Source: Gammaproteobacteria bacterium (lineage in GTDB: Bacteria; Pseudomonadota; Gammaproteobacteria; JAKDMP01). From it: a stretch of 64,000 nucleotides of DNA. Location of the stretch: contig JBOIBN010000002.1 of the NCBI GenBank assembly GCA_050739575.1, positions 2,404 to 66,403 on the forward strand, read 5' to 3'. Below are positions 6,668-29,687 of this stretch, piece after piece. The stretch's first letter is position 1. Each line of letters starts with the position of its first letter. A model generated the notes under the pieces. The model made no database searches, was not told the origin of the DNA, and saw only the letters and a list, made by a program, of their open reading frames with translations. Made by a program: the position numbers and the translations under genes.

Positions 6668-7618
6668 ATGTTTCGAATCCTTCGTTTTCCCGCCGTGGTC
6701 GTCCTTGTTGCACTGCCCATGCTAGCGCTGGCGCGGCCGCCGCTTATTTATCATCAAACCGTCAATATGACTGCCAATCAAGGGGCAAACGTAAAGCTGA
6801 TGCTCGGCAGCCCGGACGTGCAGATCGCAGTCAAACCGGTCAAATCGGTCACAGTGACGGTGGACATCTGGGCCAACGCAAGTTCCAAGGACGACAAGGC
6901 GAAGATCGTCAACCGCCTGGCCCCGACGACGAGCATGCAGGGCGACGATGTGCTCGTCCGTTCCCCCGAAAATCATGGATCGCACTGGAGTTTCGGTTGG
7001 CACCAGTCGCCTGAGGTACTGGTCTCCGTGGTCATGCCGCCGAGCATGAACGTCAATTATCGTCTCGGCTCCGGAGATTTCCGGTTCGACAACGCCGGTG
7101 CGCCGACCGCCATCAATGGCGAATCGGGATCCGGCGATGTCATGGTCCATTCGGCCTCCAAACAGCTCGTAATCAAGGCCGGTTCCGGCGATCTCGACAT
7201 CGGCCAGAACGGCAATGCCGATCAGGCGAAGCTCACGGCCGGATCGGGAGACGTCCGGTTTGAAGGCACGGTGCAGACGCTCGATATCCATACCGGTTCC
7301 GGCGACATGAACATCAACGCGGGCATGCATTCCGCCCGGCTGAATGCGGGATCGGGCGACATCACCGCACATTGGCGCAACCTGTCGCAGGGTTCGTCGC
7401 TGAGTGCGGACGCGGGATCGGGCGACGTGATGTTTTATTTCCCTGACGGCACCGCGCTTACGGGCCGTTTGAGTACCGGCAGCGGAGACATGGAAAGCCA
7501 GTCTCCCGGCACGCTCAGCAGCGAGCACCATGTATTTACGCTTTCCGGCGGTAACGGGGCAGTGACCCTCGATGCCAGCACCGGCTCCGGTGACCTGATA
7601 TTGCGCAAGGGCGGTTGA
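6668..7618 (+). CDS. DUF4097 (putative adhesin / SGD-repeat beta-helix) secreted protein
   Basis: ATG at 6668 with AGGAAGG 8 nt upstream. Signal peptide MFRILRFPAVVVLVALPMLALA, followed by ~12 repeats of the (A/T)GSGD(V/M/I/L) motif. Divergent from the giant-protein gene. Confidence 0.75.
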   Translation: MFRILRFPAVVVLVALPMLALARPPLIYHQTVNMTANQGANVKLMLGSPDVQIAVKPVKSVTVTVDIWANASSKDDKAKIVNRLAPTTSMQGDDVLVRSPENHGSHWSFGWHQSPEVLVSVVMPPSMNVNYRLGSGDFRFDNAGAPTAINGESGSGDVMVHSASKQLVIKAGSGDLDIGQNGNADQAKLTAGSGDVRFEGTVQTLDIHTGSGDMNINAGMHSARLNAGSGDITAHWRNLSQGSSLSADAGSGDVMFYFPDGTALTGRLSTGSGDMESQSPGTLSSEHHVFTLSGGNGAVTLDASTGSGDLILRKGG

Positions 7619-21622: not shown

Positions 21623-23944
21623 TCAACGAAATAGGTGGACCTGAACGGCGACAAACGCCTGGCGTATCTCGGGCACCGAGCCGAGCATGCGCTTGGCGTC
21701 GTTGGTGCCGCCATAGCGGATGCGCAGGAAATCGGGGAGTTTGTTCGGCGCCAGTTCGTCGATGCCATGCGTTTGGTAGGCTTCGAGCACATAGTCGAGA
21801 AACGAGCGCATTTCCCTTTCGTAACCGCCAAGGCCGGTGGCTCGGGCCGCTTTGACGCGGTCGGCCCGCGCGAGTGGCGCCAGCTTGAAGCGCACGTAGG
21901 CCAACACGTCGAAGATGTCGCTGTGGGGCGCGTCGATCAGGCGCCGCATGTCTTCCAACCGTTCGGCGTCGTAGCCTATCTCAGCAAGCCGTTGTATGAA
22001 GGCTATGCGGCGCTCGGGGTCGCTCCATACGGCGCGCAGTTCATCCTCGGAGGTCACCAGCGTGCCAAGGTCGCCGAACAGTTGCGCCATGAATTCCTGC
22101 GCAGTAATGAGTTGGCCGTCGTGCGACCAGTAGCTCGTGGCTGCGATATAGCGGATCTGTCGCTCCTTGCCGTCGGCCAGCTTGACGACAATCTTCTCGG
22201 GGAGCGGCGTCTGGTCTTCTTCGATGCCATGCGCTAAACTCGTTGGCTCGGTTGAGGGTTTGCGCGGCCCACGCGACTCATCCGGCGGTAGCGGCTCGCC
22301 ATCCCACTCCGGGTCACTGAAATGCTCGTAGGCGTGCACGAAATCGTAGATGGTGAAGAAGTGCTTGCCGTCAAACACCCGCGTGCCCCGGCCGATGATC
22401 TGCTTGAACTCGATCATGGACTTGATCGGGCGCATCAGCACGATATTGCGGATGTTGAGCGCGTCCACGCCGGTGGACAGCTTTTGCGAGGTGGTGAGGA
22501 TGGTCGGCAGCGTCTTTTCGTTGTCCTGAAACTCGCGCAAGTGCTGTTCGCCCAGCTTGCCGTCATCGGCGGTCACCCGCTCGCAGTAATGCGGGTCCGG
22601 GTTGATCTTGATCTGGTTGATGAAGTTGCGCACTCGCGCTGCATGGTCCTGGGTCGCGCAGAACACCAGCGTTTTCTGGCGCTGATCTATCTGGTCCATG
22701 AACTCCTGCACGCGGCTTTGCTCGCGTTCGTCAATGATGAGCTTGGTGTTGAAGTCGGCCTCGCTGTACTCGCGTTCCGGGTCTATTTCCCCGCTCACGA
22801 CTTCGTCGCCGTCGCTGTATTTGTAGGTATCGAGCGTGCTCGCCATCTGCCGCAGCTTGAACGGCGTCAGGAAGCCGTCGCCGATGCCTTCCTTCAATGC
22901 GTAGGTGTAAACGGGCTCACCGAAATAGGCATAGGTATCGGCGTTGGCGTCGCGCTTGGGCGTAGCGGTCATGCCGAGCTGCACTGCGGGCGAGAAATGT
23001 TCCAGGATGCCGCGCCAGGCGCTTTCGTCCTTCGCGCCGCCGCGGTGGCATTCGTCTATCACGATGAAGTCGAAGAAATCCGGTGGGTAACCTTCGAAGG
23101 TGAACTGCGGTTCTCCGCTTGCATCGGAGCCGGTCATGAAGGTCTGAAAGATGGTGAAGAACACGCTCGCGTTGGTGGGGATGCGGCCCTGCTTGCGAAT
23201 CTCGTCCGGGCTGATGCGGCAAAGCGCATCGCTCGGAAAAGCGCTGAAGGTGTTGTAGGCCTGATCGGCCAGGATGTTGCGGTCGGCCAGAAACAGGATG
23301 CGCGGGCGACGCGTCGGCTGGCGCGACAGGTTCCACTGCGCATGGAACAGCTTCCAGGCAATCTGGAAGGCGATGGAGGTTTTGCCCGTGCCGGTGGCCA
23401 GCGTCAACAGGATGCGGTCTTCGCCCTGGGCGATGGCTTCCAGCACCGCGGTGATCGCGTTGTGTATGTAGTAGCGCGGCTGCCACTTGCCGCCGTCGGT
23501 TTCGAAAGGCACCGCGCCGAATCGGTCGCGCCAGTCGTTGCCTTTTGGAAAGCAGCGGTCCCAAAGCTCTTGCGGCGTAGGGAAGGGCAGGGCATGATCG
23601 CCTTCGACACCGGACTGCATGTCGATGCCATACCAGCGCAGTCCGTTAGTCGAATAAGCGAAGCGAGCTTGCAGGCGGCTGGCGTAGTCCTTGGCTTGGC
23701 CAACACCGTCGGTATAGCCAAGACCCGCGCGCTTGGCTTCGATTACAGCGAGCTTGCGGTCGCGATAACTCAGCACATAGTCTGCCGACAGCGGATTCAC
23801 CCGCCCGCCGCCGGTAATCCGGCCGGGACAGATCATCTCGCGGCGAATCCGCGAGCCTTCCACCACGCCCCAGCCGGCCTCGCGGAGCACGGGGTCTATG
23901 CGGTTGGCACGGGTATCCGCTTCGGTTTCAGTCATCGCCGGCAT
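21623..23944 (-). CDS. hsdR: Type I restriction enzyme R subunit (HsdR, EcoAI/EcoEI-like short form)
   Basis: N-terminal HsdR_N nuclease region (ADYVLSYRDRKLAVIEAKR), SF2 helicase motifs (LATGTGKT, DECHR, MTATPKR, QIIGRGTR), and an EcoEI_R_C-like tail. Start set at MPAMTETEA. Confidence 0.85.
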   Translation of the reverse strand: MPAMTETEADTRANRIDPVLREAGWGVVEGSRIRREMICPGRITGGGRVNPLSADYVLSYRDRKLAVIEAKRAGLGYTDGVGQAKDYASRLQARFAYSTNGLRWYGIDMQSGVEGDHALPFPTPQELWDRCFPKGNDWRDRFGAVPFETDGGKWQPRYYIHNAITAVLEAIAQGEDRILLTLATGTGKTSIAFQIAWKLFHAQWNLSRQPTRRPRILFLADRNILADQAYNTFSAFPSDALCRISPDEIRKQGRIPTNASVFFTIFQTFMTGSDASGEPQFTFEGYPPDFFDFIVIDECHRGGAKDESAWRGILEHFSPAVQLGMTATPKRDANADTYAYFGEPVYTYALKEGIGDGFLTPFKLRQMASTLDTYKYSDGDEVVSGEIDPEREYSEADFNTKLIIDEREQSRVQEFMDQIDQRQKTLVFCATQDHAARVRNFINQIKINPDPHYCERVTADDGKLGEQHLREFQDNEKTLPTILTTSQKLSTGVDALNIRNIVLMRPIKSMIEFKQIIGRGTRVFDGKHFFTIYDFVHAYEHFSDPEWDGEPLPPDESRGPRKPSTEPTSLAHGIEEDQTPLPEKIVVKLADGKERQIRYIAATSYWSHDGQLITAQEFMAQLFGDLGTLVTSEDELRAVWSDPERRIAFIQRLAEIGYDAERLEDMRRLIDAPHSDIFDVLAYVRFKLAPLARADRVKAARATGLGGYEREMRSFLDYVLEAYQTHGIDELAPNKLPDFLRIRYGGTNDAKRMLGSVPEIRQAFVAVQVHLFR

Positions 23945-24389
23945 AACGTGCTGTGGCTTCCTGCACCGTCCCGTGGTGCCAGGGGTTGAGCAGCGCAACG
24001 CCGGTTGCTTCGAAATCGGCCGTATTGCGTGTGACCACGGTCATGCCATGGACCAGCGCGGTTGCGGCAATCAGGGCATCCCGGTCAGGACGTGGGTCGG
24101 GCACGTGCAACCCGGCGCAACGCCGCGCCACGGCCTCGTCCACCGGCAGCACCCGTCCATCGAATTCCGAAACCACCTGCTCGTCCAACCATTGACGTAG
24201 CTGCATCCCTTGCTTGGCATCGCGGCGCTCCATGCGCAGTACGCCAATTTCCAGCTCCATCAAGGTCACTGCCGACATAAAGCAGTTGGCTGTATCCACC
24301 CGGGACTGCCAGGCGGCAACGCGAGGATCCGCCTTCCCATCAGCTACTTTGCGGACTTCGGAAACGACATTGGTGTCCAGCAGATACAT
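23928..24389 (-). CDS. vapC: VapC-family PIN-domain toxin (ribonuclease)
   Basis: MYLLDTNVVSE... N-terminus with the PIN acidic quartet. Stop overlaps the hsdR start by ~17 nt. Confidence 0.8.
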   Translation of the reverse strand: MYLLDTNVVSEVRKVADGKADPRVAAWQSRVDTANCFMSAVTLMELEIGVLRMERRDAKQGMQLRQWLDEQVVSEFDGRVLPVDEAVARRCAGLHVPDPRPDRDALIAATALVHGMTVVTRNTADFEATGVALLNPWHHGTVQEATARYAGDD

Positions 24390-24403
24390 GCATCGCAACC
24401 GGA

Positions 24404-24862: not shown

Positions 24863-25078
24863 CTACCGGTACTTGGCAAACACGTCCTCAGCCGGGATAG
24901 ACTCAATTTCTCCTCGCTCATGGGCTTCGACGCGGGCATCTGCCTCTTGTGCCCACGCGGCATCAATTTCGGGGTTGGGAACGTCCAGACTCAGAAGAAT
25001 CTGCTCGGCAACCGCCGCTCGCTCGGATGCCTTGAGTTTTAGTGCCTGATTGATTACGGATGCGGTTGAGTCAGACAT
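24863..25078 (-). CDS. Putative addiction-module antitoxin component (Unstab_antitox-like), apparently orphan
   Basis: MSDSTASVINQALKLKASERAAVAEQILLSLDVPNPEIDAAWAQEADARVEAHERGEIESIPAEDVFAKYR. The ~190 bp downstream lacks an intact RelE/ParE-type partner. Confidence 0.55.
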   Translation of the reverse strand: MSDSTASVINQALKLKASERAAVAEQILLSLDVPNPEIDAAWAQEADARVEAHERGEIESIPAEDVFAKYR

Positions 25079-25151
25079 GAATATCACCTATATATCCAAC
25101 TATCAAGATCATAGCACGGTGGCCGCGGGGCGAACTCGGATTCCGTGCCAC

Positions 25152-26531
25152 TCAGGTCAGCTCACCGGCGAAGGCTTTTTGCAGGATGGATTGACGGAGG
25201 TCGGCGATGTCCGAGAGTTTCGTTTGATACCGGCTTTCTAGGTGACTTGATTCATTCCCAATCGCACTCAGTGTATTGCAAATCTCTTTTTGTCGATCCC
25301 GCGAAGGATGGCAGATATGGAATGCCTTTACCTCCGGGAAGTAAATAGTTTGATGCACCGAACCGCTTGCAAATTCGCGGATTTTATCCCCTTGGGCGAG
25401 CAAAAGAAACTTCAGAAAATCGGGTTCTAGATGATCACCGCATATCCAATTCACGAAATCCTGACTTGTTGCCATGTCGCGGCCCATTACTACGACATAA
25501 CCTACCGAGGCAGTGCGAGAAAGGCAGACGGTTCCCTTCGGCAGGATGCGAGCGCTGGAATTAGCGATACCTCGCTGATTCGTCTGCTCTCGGGTCGAGA
25601 AAATTTTGCCCCCATGATGATCGCCTGCATCGCGTATCCCGATCCATCCAATGTCGCCGCCCCAATATTCCGGATGCTTTCTGCTAGGAGTGTGTCCACT
25701 TTCAAGCCGTGCCATATCAGATAATGGCGACCAGACCCAGCCTGGCCGCGCCTCGACGTGTGGGCGGAGAACAGACAAGGAATAATTGCCTTCAATCGGA
25801 CGAGTTGTTGCGCCGCGTCCACCGGTTTGTGTTTGCGCTTTGGATCGCTTTGACTGGGCACGTTTTGTGGTGATCAACTGTACAAGAGGCGCTGTATCAG
25901 AAAGCCATTTACGAGAGTCGTTTGAGAAAACGTCACGAAGTGCGCTCAGAAAGAACCCCTGCGCGTCCGCCAGATTGGCCTCGGCATCGGCGCGGGCGCG
26001 GTCGAGGGCGGCGAAGATCTGATCGAGCACCGCAACAATCCGCTTTTGCTCCTCCAGTGGGGGGAGCGGGATGAATATGTTGCCAATGATTACCAAGGTC
26101 AGCGACGGATATTTGTGGTCTTGGATCAGGTCCTGCGCCTTTACAGTAGACAGGTAATAAAGCAGGTAGCGCGGTTCGGCCACATCTTGTCGCGCTGTTA
26201 TCGTAGCGAGATGACTTGAGACATATCCATCAACGGACATCTCGACTCGATGGTTGAGAAAAGTGGAAGCTCCGCTCTTCGGCATCAAGACAGTTCCGGC
26301 GGGGACCAGTCGGAGCTTGGAAATTCCATCGTCGTTGAGAAGATCGGAGGCTCCATCGATATTGCCGAACCTGACTCGACCAACGTCCGACGTGCGAATA
26401 AAAGGATATATACCGTTCTCGAAGAGCTCTTTTTTCTGAGGAGCTGAATTTCCTGCCCCAATATGCGCGGCATCTTTCAGCAAAACGGACTTCCATTCCC
26501 GTTGACTAGCGATGGCAGCGGTGCTGTTCAC
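25152..26531 (-). CDS. hsdS: Type I restriction-modification specificity subunit HsdS (two target-recognition domains)
   Basis: 459 aa with two TRDs separated by a central conserved helix. Strongly AT-shifted DNA relative to its surroundings. GTG start overlaps the hsdM stop (GTGA). Confidence 0.85.
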   Translation of the reverse strand: MNSTAAIASQREWKSVLLKDAAHIGAGNSAPQKKELFENGIYPFIRTSDVGRVRFGNIDGASDLLNDDGISKLRLVPAGTVLMPKSGASTFLNHRVEMSVDGYVSSHLATITARQDVAEPRYLLYYLSTVKAQDLIQDHKYPSLTLVIIGNIFIPLPPLEEQKRIVAVLDQIFAALDRARADAEANLADAQGFFLSALRDVFSNDSRKWLSDTAPLVQLITTKRAQSKRSKAQTQTGGRGATTRPIEGNYSLSVLRPHVEARPGWVWSPLSDMARLESGHTPSRKHPEYWGGDIGWIGIRDAGDHHGGKIFSTREQTNQRGIANSSARILPKGTVCLSRTASVGYVVVMGRDMATSQDFVNWICGDHLEPDFLKFLLLAQGDKIREFASGSVHQTIYFPEVKAFHICHPSRDRQKEICNTLSAIGNESSHLESRYQTKLSDIADLRQSILQKAFAGELT

Positions 26532-27888
26532 AACATATCCCGAATACCCTTAAGAATCTTCGCCGTCTCGGCATCGCGCGCCAGCATGTCCTTGATGATC
26601 TGCTCCGGTTCACGCGACGGCGTTGCCTCGGGGGCGTTGGGGTTTTTGACCGACAGGTTCCACGTCGTCTTGTCGATGTCGGCGGCCTGCACGGTCCAGC
26701 TTTGCGGGCTGTCGGCTTTCTTTGGTTGCAGCTTCACGAACTCGGCCAGGTCGTTGTCGTTGAGCGGGTTGGTTTTGCCCAGGCTGCGACCCGGATCGAG
26801 CTGGTAGTACCAGATCTTGCGCGTCTTCGATCCTTTCTCGAAGAACAGCACCACGGTCTTGACGCCCGCGCCCTGGAAGGTGCCGCCGGGGCAGTCGAGT
26901 ACGGTGTGCAGCTTGCAGGTGGTGAGCAGTTCCTTGCGCAGGGCGACGCTGGCGTTGTCGGTGTTGCTGAGGAAGGTGTTCTTGATGACCACGGCGCCAC
27001 GCCCGCCGGCCCTGAGCTTGCGCATGAAGTGCTGCAGAAACAGGTAGGCCGTCTCGCCGGACTTGATGGGGAAGTTGTGCTGCACCTCCTTGCGTTCGCC
27101 GCCGCCGAAGGGCGGATTGGCGAGAACAATGTCGTGGCGGCCGCGCTCGGCGATGTCTATGACGTTTTCGGTGAGCGTGTTGGTGTGGCGGATGGACGGC
27201 GCGTCGATGCCGTGCAGCACCATGTTCATCACGCCGATGACGTAAGCCAGGGATTTCTTTTCCTGGCCGTAGAAGGTGCGGCGCTGTAGCTGTTTCCACT
27301 GCGAGGCGGAAAGATCGCCGCGGCGCAGATATTCCCAGGCCTCGCAGAGAAACCCGGCGGAGCCGCAGGCGCCGTCGTAGATGGTCTCGCCGATTTGCGG
27401 GGCCGTGACTTTGACCATGGCGCGGATCAGCGGGCGCGGCGTGTAGTACTCGCCGCCATTGCGCCCGGCGTTGCCCATGCGCTTAATGCGGGTTTCGTAC
27501 AGGTCTGATTGATGACTTCGGAGAAGATTTCGCCGATCTTGTATTCGAGCGTATCCGCGTGCTCGGCGCTTTCGTGGAACTTCTTCAGGTAGGGGAACAG
27601 TTTGCCGTTGATGAACTCGATCAGATCTTCACCGGTCAGCGCGGCGTGGTGATCGAATTCGCCGTCCTTTTTGGGCGCTGCCCAGGTATGCCAGCGGTAG
27701 GGTATGTCGAGGATCGGCGTGTACTCGCGGCTTTCCAGTTGGGCGTTGTCCTCGCGCTCGGTTTCCAGATCGTCCAGGTACTTCAGAAACAGCAGCCACG
27801 AGGTCTGCTCAGCGTAATCGAGTTCCGAGGCGAGCCCCTCGTCGTTACGCATGACCTTGTCGATATTATTGAACGCGTTTTCAAACAT
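26528..27888 (-). pseudogene. hsdM: Type I RM N6-adenine methyltransferase HsdM, interrupted by a frameshift near 27430..27480
   Basis: ORF 27427..27888 is the HsdM_N domain (…IGEIFSEVINQT…). ORF 26528..27478 is the catalytic half (GGEYYTPRPLIRAMV, DGACGSAGFL, NPPFG). Both are needed for one protein but lie in different frames with a 52-nt overlap. Confidence 0.75.
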
Positions 27889-27971
27889 TTTGACGATTAC
27901 CTATCCACAACAACAGCGTTCGTTGGATCGAGTCTGTTGGAGGTTCGGTAGGCGGTCATTTCTTGTATCCT

Positions 27972-28006
27972 CCCATAAAGCGGCCCCGGCTTGAAACCGG
28001 GGCCGC
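27972..28006 (-). terminator. Rho-independent terminator of ssrA
   Basis: On the minus strand, GCGGCCCCGG-TTTCAAG-CCGGGGCCGC followed by TTTAT, immediately 3' of the tmRNA CCA end. Confidence 0.65.
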
Positions 28007-28010
28007 TGGT

Positions 28011-28631
28011 TGGTGGAGGCGGGGGGACAGCTGGTTCCATATCTTTCGATATGGGCCGGACTATTCCTTCACCTGTCGTGTCCCGACAGGGGAGGGCGTT
28101 TGTGGGCCTGCAGCCCACCCTAGTACTCCATGGAGCGTTGCTCTTCAGGAGCCTATGAGTCTCTAGCCGGCTTACTGGTTTCCCATTCACCGGACGGCGT
28201 TGGCATAGAACCCTTGCTCCTTAGCGTTCACCGTATGAGCCCTCTTTTCCAACGGGGATCGCTCCCCGTGGCGACCGTCTTCCAATCGAACCCCCGTCCG
28301 CGAGCCCTCCGCCGTCGGCTCTACATGCTTATCCCGGTCTATTTATCTTGTCGCGTGCTACCCGACGGGCAGGGAAAACACGTGACCAGTCCGACTTGGT
28401 TTTAGCGGCAGTAGTCCGGACCCCTGCCACCGCGATTCTGCGAGATGCGACCCCTGAGACGGACCCGAAGATCCTCCGGACGCGCAGACGCGGCTCCGGT
28501 CAAGGGCTGGCGGGGCTTAAGCCGCCAGTGCGTAGCTGTTGTTGTTCGCAGCTATTGCGTTTGCAGTCTGATTTACGAGGGGACTGCACCTCGGCATGCA
28601 CCTCGGGTTTCGCGACCCACGTCGAAACCTG
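28011..28631 (-). ncRNA. ssrA: tmRNA (ssrA), interrupted by an intron in the T-loop; mature length ~374 nt
   Basis: 5' end GGGGGCGACCAGGUUUCGACGUGGGUCGCGAAACCCGAGGUGCAUGCCGAGG... Tag reading frame ...GCAAACGCA...AACAACAACAGCUACGCACUGGCGGCUUAA (…NNNSYALAA*). T-arm GGACGGGGGUUCGAU | insertion | UCCCCCCGCCUCCACCA; the acceptor stem pairs with the 5' end. Confidence 0.85.
28028..28274 (-). other. Putative group I intron (IC3-like, ~247 nt) inside the ssrA T-loop
   Basis: The insert starts UGGAAGACGG and ends ...ACCAGCUG (omega G). The 5' exon ends in U. It contains UAUGCCAACGCCG (cf. the Azoarcus tRNA-Ile intron UAUGGCAACGCCG), GCUAGAGACUCA (R-like) and GAAGGAAUAGUCC (S-like) in canonical order. 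No ORF. Confidence 0.65.
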
Positions 28632-28644
28632 GTCGCCCCCATGG

Positions 28645-28673
28645 TCCTTTGTCATTATGCGGGCGCGGGCTGG
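28645..28673 (-). promoter_or_regulatory. Sigma70-type promoter of ssrA (TTGATA-17-CATAAT, +1 ~11 nt downstream)
   Basis: Minus strand: TTGATAagtccagcccgcgcccgCATAATgacaaaggaccatgGGGGCGACC. Confidence 0.5.
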
Positions 28674-28730
28674 ACTTATCAAGCCGCGGGAGCGCCGGCG
28701 AGGTCTGCACGATGAAGAATGGCCGGGCGT

Positions 28731-29171
28731 TCAGGCCGGCCAGTTGCCAGTCCGGATCATCTCCGCGAGTTCGCCGTAGCGTGCCGAAAGCTGGCGCGCG
28801 GCTTTCGAATCCAGCAATGCTTCTGCCGCCGCGTTCCAGTTGCGTGCGGCGAGCGCCGCGATGGTGTTGTGGAATCCGAGCAATTCCGCGATGCCCAGGT
28901 TATAGGCCGCATCCACGACGGCTGCCTGGCGGACGTTGTCGAGCGCGGCAAACCAGGGATATTGCATCAGCGTCGCGACGTAGCCGTCGGTGTCGGCGTG
29001 AAAGAGCGTTTCCAGCGCCGATCGTTGCAGGTTCTGGTCGAGACGGGTGCCGATGCCGATCGTCGGATGCCCTTCGACGGCGTAACCGGGCACGATGGCT
29101 TTGCCCGTCGCGTCGTCATAAACGTGGGCGACGTAGCCCTCGTGACTTTCGATCAGTTGGTAGATATCTAT
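28731..29171 (-). CDS. T4-type (GH24) lysozyme/endolysin lacking a canonical start codon (possible ATA start or pseudogene)
   Basis: Translation ...IDIYQLIESHEGYVAHVYDDATGKAIVPGYAVEGHPTIGIGTRL...AAVVDAAYNLG...RNWNAAAEALLDSKAARQ...MIRTGNW aligns with T4 lysozyme, including the catalytic Glu/Asp region. The frame opens directly after the bfr stop codon. Only ATA (GGAGGGAGG 5 nt upstream) is available before the first GTG at 29093, and that GTG would delete the catalytic residues. Confidence 0.55.
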   Translation of the reverse strand: MDIYQLIESHEGYVAHVYDDATGKAIVPGYAVEGHPTIGIGTRLDQNLQRSALETLFHADTDGYVATLMQYPWFAALDNVRQAAVVDAAYNLGIAELLGFHNTIAALAARNWNAAAEALLDSKAARQLSARYGELAEMIRTGNWPA

Positions 29172-29222
29172 CGCAGCCTCCCTCCAACTCCGTGCGCGAA
29201 GGGACGAATAATTCAGACTTTC

Positions 29223-29687
29223 CTATATCATTTTCTGGCTGTAGTTTTCAATACCGATGCGTTCGATCAGGTCGAGTTGGGTTTCCAGCCAGTCTATGTG
29301 TTCTTCCTCGCTTTCGAGGATGTCTTCCAGCAGATCGCGCGAGACGTAGTCGCTGACCTTTTCGCAATGGGCGATGGCTTCGCGGAGTGGCGGATGGGCA
29401 TCGCGTTCGAGCTTGAGATCGCACTCGATGATTTCCTTCACGTCCTCGCCGAGGTGTAACTTGCCGAGATCCTGGAGGTTGGGCAGGCCCTCCAGAAACA
29501 GGATGCGCTCGATCAGCCGGTCGGCATGCTTCATCTCGTCTATGGATTCGTTGTATTCGTGTTCGTCCAGTTGCTTGAGTCCCCAGTTCTTGTACATGCG
29601 CGCATGCACGAAGTACTGGTTGATCGCGGTGAGTTCGTTTTTGAGGATCTGGTTGAGGTGCTGGATGACGGTTTTATCGCCTTGCAT
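29223..29687 (-). CDS. bfr: Bacterioferritin
   Basis: [37 protein letters not shown]...[24 protein letters not shown]; near-identical in pattern to E. coli Bfr. Confidence 0.9.

Follow-up and report, generated by a model that had tools for sequence, protein, structure and literature searches.

How is a reading frame to be interpreted when its catalytic residues and ribosome-binding site are in place and the codon at its beginning is ATA? The question is raised by a phage-type lysozyme frame that lies between bfr, encoding bacterioferritin (Bfr), and ssrA, the gene for transfer-messenger RNA (tmRNA), on contig JBOIBN010000002.1 of a gammaproteobacterium. The stretch analysed, called the window throughout, is 64 kb long, and all features of the lysozyme locus are on its minus strand (Table 1). 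Comparison with an orthologue indicates that the ATA stands where an ancestral ATG stood and that the gene was maintained by purifying selection. We prefer, with a probability of about 0.5, a reading in which the gene shares a transcript with bfr and AUA serves as a weak start of translation.

The product read from the ATA is a complete T4-type lysozyme (glycoside hydrolase family 24 (GH24), PF00959) and an ordinary member of that family, showing every membership feature that could be examined. Its 146 amino acids (aa) align over their full length with T4 lysozyme residues 1-160 (E 4e-11), the ATA falling on T4 Met1 and Glu11 on T4 Glu11; it passes the gathering score of PF00959 (26.7 bits against 22.3) and matches PHROG 7, 'endolysin', while NCBIfam holds no named family for it. 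Glu11, Asp20 and Thr37 are invariant in the family alignments, and Asp20 is followed by a subfamily insertion of 11-12 residues (VYDDATGKAIVPG...GHPTIGIG). The N-terminus, (M)DIYQLIESHEGYVAHVYDDATGK when translated from the ATA, has no signal or membrane segment as read directly from the sequence. An AlphaFold2 model shows the two-lobed alpha/beta lysozyme fold with an overall pLDDT of 83, with only 55-62 in the N-terminal lobe, and its top 50 Foldseek matches are all T4 lysozyme structures or T4-lysozyme fusion constructs (TM ~0.76). With 16,963 cluster representatives at E <= 0.001, the subfamily ranks as very large, and it includes 122 relatives on viral contigs, with identities of up to 46%; in all other family members the start Met lies 10-33 residues before the catalytic Glu. 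Because viral relatives are common, and because the gene set around one of them (contig L083) places the endolysin among virion genes, a phage endolysin origin of the window lysozyme is well supported.

The first-pass annotation of this DNA had described a complete T4-lysozyme-like domain between bfr and ssrA, a description borne out by the T4 alignment, by PF00959 and, for ssrA, by an Rfam tmRNA match of 154.6 bits. It had also described a frame open back to the bfr TAG and an ATA preceded by GGAGGGAGG, both of which are present on the minus strand, a strand that it had not named. Beyond the ATA, which is followed by 145 further codons before the TGA, the first in-frame ATG, GTG or TTG is a GTG that lies 3' of the catalytic Glu and Asp codons, and a start there would delete the active site, again as had been noted. 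In the other direction, the bfr frame continues past its TAG through 17 sense codons, stop-free, to the ATA. This continuity is not remarkable, because a shared frame (1 in 3) followed by 17 stop-free codons at ~60% GC is estimated to arise by chance with a probability of ~0.2.

Close relatives of the protein are few. In a collection of 5.8 billion proteins they fall into a single 90%-identity cluster with three members: P0001 (146 aa), from the European Nucleotide Archive metagenome contig L001; P0009 (120 aa), a GTG-started gene call on L163, a contig of an NCBI metagenome-assembled genome (MAG); and P0010 (161 aa), which is MGH8426467.1, 'MAG: glycoside hydrolase family protein [Gammaproteobacteria bacterium]', on a 79,370-nucleotide (nt) contig. 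The sequence of MGH8426467.1 equals the window frame exactly, read from CTG 29216-29214, and the gene is thus already in public annotation as a glycoside hydrolase, its non-canonical start having been assigned automatically. No match came from GTDB species genomes scanned with the lysozyme, and a metagenome scan gave one only, on contig L082, which was partial and unrelated.

The orthologue on L001 is informative about the start. On that contig the gene order is that of the window (bfr, lysozyme, then ssrA, of which the 5' part is present), and the lysozyme encoded there shares 92% aa identity with the window protein. In the start region L001 reads ...GAGGCTGCA ATG GAC ATC TAC... and the window reads ...GAGGCTGCG ATA GAT ATC TAC.... 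Because L001 has ATG at this codon and all other family members start with Met, the comparison identifies ATG as the ancestral state and the window ATA as derived, the third start-codon base (29169) having gone from G to A. Alignment with an orthologous locus was the check that the first-pass annotation had proposed for its suggestion of a mutated ATG, and the suggestion stands. The L001 lysozyme is also in the bfr frame, with an in-frame TGA between the two genes. The spacer between bfr and lysozyme is 150 nt long in L001 (582-731), compared with 51 nt in the window, where it is ~99 nt shorter; the additional ~99 nt fold into strong hairpins, e.g., CCCGGCC-TGT-GGCCGGG, and recur neither in the window nor in any locus that was fetched. 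Since this extra spacer is no repeated element, either the window may have lost it or L001 may have gained it. A second ATG/ATA difference lies 54 nt upstream of the lysozyme start, at the last bfr codon (29226-29228, minus strand), which is ATA (Ile) in the window and ATG (Met) in L001; it is probably a coincidence.

Divergence between the two copies points to a gene maintained by selection. For the lysozyme gene, window and L001 differ by a synonymous divergence (dS) of 0.35 and a nonsynonymous divergence (dN) of 0.037, and because the resulting dN/dS is 0.106, purifying selection has maintained the gene for nearly all of the window-L001 divergence, and it is not a decaying prophage fragment. 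The corresponding values for bfr are a dS of 0.38 and a dN/dS of 0.05. Codons 1-26, which precede the GTG, are as conserved between the two copies as the rest of the gene and contain a single replacement. The window protein also fits a profile of 132 family members nearly as well as that of L001 does (171.2 and 174.6 bits).

The ATA is present in a second assembly. Contig L163 (GCA_974167825.1, CDBNZP010000012.1, 5,885 nt) agrees with the window in the ATA and in the leader, and its lysozyme gene is identical to that of the window base for base. A sequencing error at the ATA was considered as a candidate explanation and ruled out, because the same base occurs in L163, a separate assembly whose upstream genes differ by 12-16%; the allele is therefore not a private error of the window. 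The differences between the two contigs are unevenly distributed: dapE differs by 16%, bfd by 12% and the first half of bfr by 6%, and over ~4.4 kb corresponding to window 25048-29445 (the 3' half of bfr, lysozyme, ssrA, hsdM and hsdS) there are two differences only. The sharp switch in the middle of bfr means either that two species-level lineages have recently shared an ssrA-linked block by recombination or transfer, or that the MAG contig is chimeric.

The sequence in front of the ATA is an unusually strong Shine-Dalgarno site. Duplex energies with the anti-Shine-Dalgarno sequence are -11.4 kcal/mol for the window ATA, -5.8 for the ATG of L001, -6.6 for bfr and -2.6 for the downstream GTG (29093). 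Values of <= -11 kcal/mol are reached by only 0.3% of the 20-nt windows in the 64-kb sequence, and a comparably strong site is found in 1 of 70 long open reading frames (ORFs), even when the best candidate start of each is chosen. The ribosome-binding site belongs to the ATA. The locus thus has one of the features looked for in a non-canonical start, a strong and well-placed ribosome-binding site, and lacks another, found in infC, which is conservation of the non-AUG codon among diverged orthologues: L001 has ATG, and L163 is sequence-identical. The spacer between bfr and the lysozyme frame contains no promoter-like or terminator-like site, and the two genes are probably co-transcribed.

Table 1. 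Coordinates of the features at the lysozyme locus in the window
Feature	Position	Strand	Remarks
Lysozyme frame (GH24, T4-type)	28731..29171	-	146 codons, ATA (29171-29169) to TGA (28733-28731)
ATA in ancestral start position	29169..29171	-	ATG in L001 (DNA alignment); ATA also in L163
Shine-Dalgarno GGAGGGAGG	29177..29185	-	5-nt spacer (CTGCG) before ATA
Catalytic Glu11 codon GAG	29139..29141	-	
Asp20 codon GAC	29112..29114	-	
Thr37 codon (= T4 Thr26)	29061..29063	-	After the 11-12-residue subfamily insertion
GTG, first canonical in-frame start	29091..29093	-	120-aa product without Glu11 and Asp20; start of the L163 gene call
In-frame CTG	29214..29216	-	Start chosen in NCBI annotation; weak AGGA 4 nt upstream, read from the sequence
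Spacer between bfr and lysozyme	29172..29222	-	51 nt, no stop in bfr frame
bfr (bacterioferritin)	29223..29687	-	154 codons from ATG 29687; 3' end ATG ATA TAG, TAG = 29225-29223
ssrA promoter-like site TTGATA-17-CATAAT	28654..28682	-	Just after the lysozyme stop; conserved in L001
tmRNA gene (ssrA), intron form	28011..28640	-	5' exon 28640-28285; T-loop insert 28284-28028 (257 nt); 3' exon 28027-28011

No prophage is present around the gene. Its immediate neighbours are bfr and ssrA; on the bfr side lies a conserved housekeeping block (bfd and, at 30-47 kb, dapE, dapD, an aminotransferase gene, glnD, map, rpsB, tsf, uppS, dxr, rseP and bamA), and on the 3' side of ssrA, at 13-28 kb, lie type I restriction-modification genes (hsdM in two ORFs, hsdS, a PIN-domain gene and hsdR), followed by NYN-domain, EF-hand and RND efflux genes. 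No integrase, holin, spanin or other phage gene was found near the lysozyme in the window, nor was a second copy of the tmRNA 3' end, and no meaningful direct or inverted repeats flank the lysozyme gene in the window or in L001. Islands that target tmRNA insert at the 3' end of the tmRNA gene; here the lysozyme gene is upstream (5') of the ssrA promoter, and it is the restriction-modification island that occupies the 3' side. Frequent use of the tmRNA gene by islands is noted in PMC11915505. The first-pass annotation had pointed to ssrA as an integration hotspot, a suggestion that does not fit a lysozyme gene on the 5' side. A start-mutated prophage remnant, one of the readings that it offered, holds in part: the start mutation is seen against the ATG of L001, and the prophage is not, since phage genes, integrase, holin and att repeats are all lacking nearby; the dN/dS indicates maintenance rather than decay. 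The lysozyme gene belongs neither to a lysis cassette or prophage nor to an island integrated at tmRNA.

The junction downstream of bfr varies among relatives. In the closer relatives L164 and L166, whose Bfr proteins are 91-92% identical to that of the window, only 63 nt separate bfr from the same tmRNA gene, with no lysozyme between them; in L165, L167 and L002 other genes follow bfr, and L002 (Bfr 89%) is syntenic up to bfr only. Among the 80 genomes with the most similar Bfr, none has a lysozyme or tmRNA gene adjoining bfr. Because L164 and L166 pass from bfr to the tmRNA gene without a lysozyme and the others have different genes there, the lysozyme gene looks like a lineage-specific single-gene acquisition at a variable junction, and its loss in the L164 clade appears less likely.

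Two observations concern the restriction-modification cluster itself. The hsdM gene (26528-27888, minus strand) is divided into two overlapping ORFs, one encoding an HsdM_N domain (153 aa, 27888-27427) and the other an N6_Mtase domain (316 aa, 27478-26528); the same split occurs in L163, and no obvious homopolymer tract is seen at the junction. Either a frameshifted pseudogene or an error left uncorrected could account for the split. The PIN-domain gene (23928-24398, minus strand) lies inside the cluster, between hsdS and hsdR.

According to the reading that we prefer, an orphan phage-derived GH24 endolysin gene would have become fixed between bfr and ssrA, where purifying selection preserved it; on the window branch its ATG then changed to ATA, with frame, catalytic residues and ribosome-binding site left intact. 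The gene would still be transcribed with bfr, and low-level translation from AUA by initiator tRNA would yield a predicted cytoplasmic muramidase of 146 aa, the same product as in the relative but far less of it. Continued transcription and a low rate of AUA translation are suggested because the Shine-Dalgarno site is strong, the spacer is shorter than in L001 and has no terminator-like site, and the frame is intact. In Escherichia coli reporters, AUA, AUC, AUU and CUG initiate at 1-2% of the efficiency of AUG (bioRxiv 10.1101/063800), and weakened start codons tend to accompany stronger Shine-Dalgarno sequences (PMC5622118). The change in the Shine-Dalgarno site may be compensatory.

Several considerations weigh against this reading. 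An efficiency of 1-2% of AUG may amount to effectively zero, and neither a holin nor an export signal was found that would explain how a cytoplasmic lysozyme reaches the cell wall. The ATA is conserved nowhere beyond the identical copy in L163, which, being identical over the whole gene, adds no evolutionary information and may moreover come from a chimeric MAG contig. The sole diverged orthologue is that of L001, which is too little to date the ATA mutation or to tell in which direction the Shine-Dalgarno site has changed. Finally, at the 11 aa differences between the two proteins, the window has the residue that is rare in the family and L001 the common one at 5, with the reverse at 3, an asymmetry that is at most a faint, non-significant hint of relaxed constraint and is too small to interpret.

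The same observations have been weighed under other explanations, of which two accept the ATA as the relevant codon. The gene may be a recent pseudogene, in which the change from ATG to ATA put an end to translation too recently for the frame to have suffered further damage; we regard this as a serious contender, though one that we would not bet on. ATA is not recognised as a start in most bacteria, the ancestral codon was evidently ATG, and the only other ATA copy is sequence-identical, giving no sign that the ATA has persisted through divergence. Against a profile of 132 family members the window protein also scores slightly lower than that of L001 (171.2 and 174.6 bits), it has the rarer residue at 5 of the 11 differing sites, and the nearby hsdM is likewise split into two ORFs. 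However, a dN/dS of 0.11 leaves room for a short neutral period only, of the two ribosome-binding sites it is that of the ATG orthologue that is the weaker, and the lysozyme frame contains no frameshifts or stops. Alternatively, the ATA may be a selected state and not damage: loss of 99 nt of spacer, a stronger Shine-Dalgarno site and the change from ATG to ATA would together have turned a domesticated endolysin into a gene that shares a transcript with bfr and is translated only very weakly, from AUA or by ribosomes arriving from bfr. It would then be a natural bacterial case of AUA initiation; we hold this possibility tentatively and consider it somewhat doubtful.

The remaining explanations move the start elsewhere. 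Initiation at the CTG of the NCBI annotation, giving a 161-aa lysozyme with a 15-residue N-terminal extension, would reproduce exactly the product in the public record MGH8426467.1; CUG is a near-cognate codon with the same 1-2% efficiency (bioRxiv 10.1101/063800), and the 25 residues that would precede the catalytic Glu are within the family range of 10-33. We nevertheless consider it improbable, given that only a weak AGGA lies upstream of the CTG and the strong Shine-Dalgarno site is positioned for the ATA, that the extension has no counterpart in L001, where the region is different DNA with an in-frame TGA, and that the NCBI start is an automated choice and not evidence of use. More improbable still is initiation at the GTG, which is the first canonical start and is used in the L163 gene call: it would yield a truncated, non-catalytic cell-wall-binding fragment, it has no Shine-Dalgarno site, the 26 codons upstream of it are conserved like the rest of the gene, and the truncation would, from the predicted structure, delete the first helix and strand of the fold. 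We place at the same very low level the proposal, also made in the first-pass annotation, that the lysozyme is expressed by read-through of the bfr TAG as a Bfr fusion, or its variant in which ribosomes terminate at bfr and re-initiate downstream; read-through taken alone is rated slightly lower again. The coinciding frames, the stop-free linker of 51 nt and the lack of a terminator-like site between the genes would suit such a mechanism, but the frame coincidence and stop-free linker are expected by chance at the rate given above, and L001 has a TGA in the same frame between bfr and lysozyme, so that the stop-free linker is not conserved and read-through has no support. We know of no read-through signal in UAG-GAA, and a tail of 163 residues would probably disturb assembly of the 24-subunit Bfr shell.

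The neighbouring tmRNA gene carries an insert. The Rfam match stops in the T-loop, at 28283, and the interruption explains why ARAGORN detects no tmRNA here. The 5' exon runs up to ...GGGGGTTCGAT (28285), the last bases of the insert are ...GCTG (28028), and the 3' exon is TCCCCCCGCCTCCACCA (28027-28011); the insert thus lies between T-loop nucleotides 6 and 7, with a U before it and a G at its 3' end. Once it is taken out, the T stem (5 bp) and the acceptor stem (7 bp, with the G3-U pair) are complete again, and the mature RNA is 373 nt long. The same insert occurs in L164 and L166 at ~89% identity, and the split T stem shows compensatory change, with GGGGG/CCCCC in the window against GCGGG/CCCGC in L164 and L166. 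The consensus fold of the insert comprises a long-range pairing and hairpins with compensatory changes, including three fully compensatory pairs in one hairpin. Both differences between the window and L163 (28040 and 28051) are the two partners of one pair, changed from U-A to C-G, in the insert hairpin CCAUAUC-GAAA-GAUAUGG, and L164 and L166 have the U-G intermediate at this pair. The insert has no group I intron match in Rfam, even at E <= 10, and a dedicated tmRNA_intron model is absent from that database. The window gene matches the intron form already described for tmRNA genes, with a group I intron in the T-loop, mostly at loop position 7; 883 unique sequences of this form, from 21 phyla, have been reported (PMC11915505). 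On L164, a LAGLIDADG-type ORF (motif LIDGEG, weak match to Pfam LAGLIDADG_3) lies at the contig end, at 7208-7452, 42 nt past the tmRNA gene and outside the intron, at a place where the window has hsdM; it may be a free-standing homing endonuclease beside an intron target.

As a minor variant of a very common gene family, the lysozyme gene carries limited weight in itself. It does illustrate how gene callers deal with a start mutation, in that one call truncates the protein at the GTG, losing the active site, and the NCBI annotation extends it to the CTG, while the orthologue marks the ATA as the real start position. If AUA initiation is real, a natural AUA start would join the very short list of confirmed non-canonical bacterial starts. 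The locus also shows that selection can keep a single phage lysozyme, unaccompanied by a holin, in a free-living gammaproteobacterium.

Among known systems, T4 lysozyme (gp e) is aligned with the window protein end to end from residue 1 and shares with it the Glu11/Asp20/Thr26-equivalent triad, the predicted fold and the lack of a signal peptide. The window protein differs in having only ~25% identity, the insertion GKAIVPGYAVEG (11-12 residues) between Asp20 and Thr and a shorter stretch of the N-terminal lobe, and its gene is chromosomal and solitary, outside any phage, with ATA as codon 1. Closer are the 'VYDDATG' phage endolysins of IMG/VR contigs, which share length, insertion and motifs with the window protein. 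In L083, the closest viral relative (46% identity), the endolysin gene follows a small hydrophobic ORF, a holin-like ORF that has no PHROGs match, and precedes a weak Rz-like spanin match, among virion genes, whereas the window copy has no such neighbours. The retention of a phage-type lysozyme in a bacterial chromosome recalls E. coli RrrD and RrrQ, the lysozymes of cryptic prophages. These, however, lie in recognisable defective prophages with adjoining lysis genes, in contrast to the window gene, which has no other phage genes around it and, judged against its orthologue, shows purifying selection. For the start codon the comparison is with infC, whose AUU is shared among species, with a role in autoregulation that has been demonstrated; unlike it, the window ATA is not conserved in the only diverged orthologue. 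What the window gene shares with infC and with pcnB (both AUU, in E. coli) is a near-cognate AUN start behind a good Shine-Dalgarno sequence, the expected effect of which is low, throttled translation.

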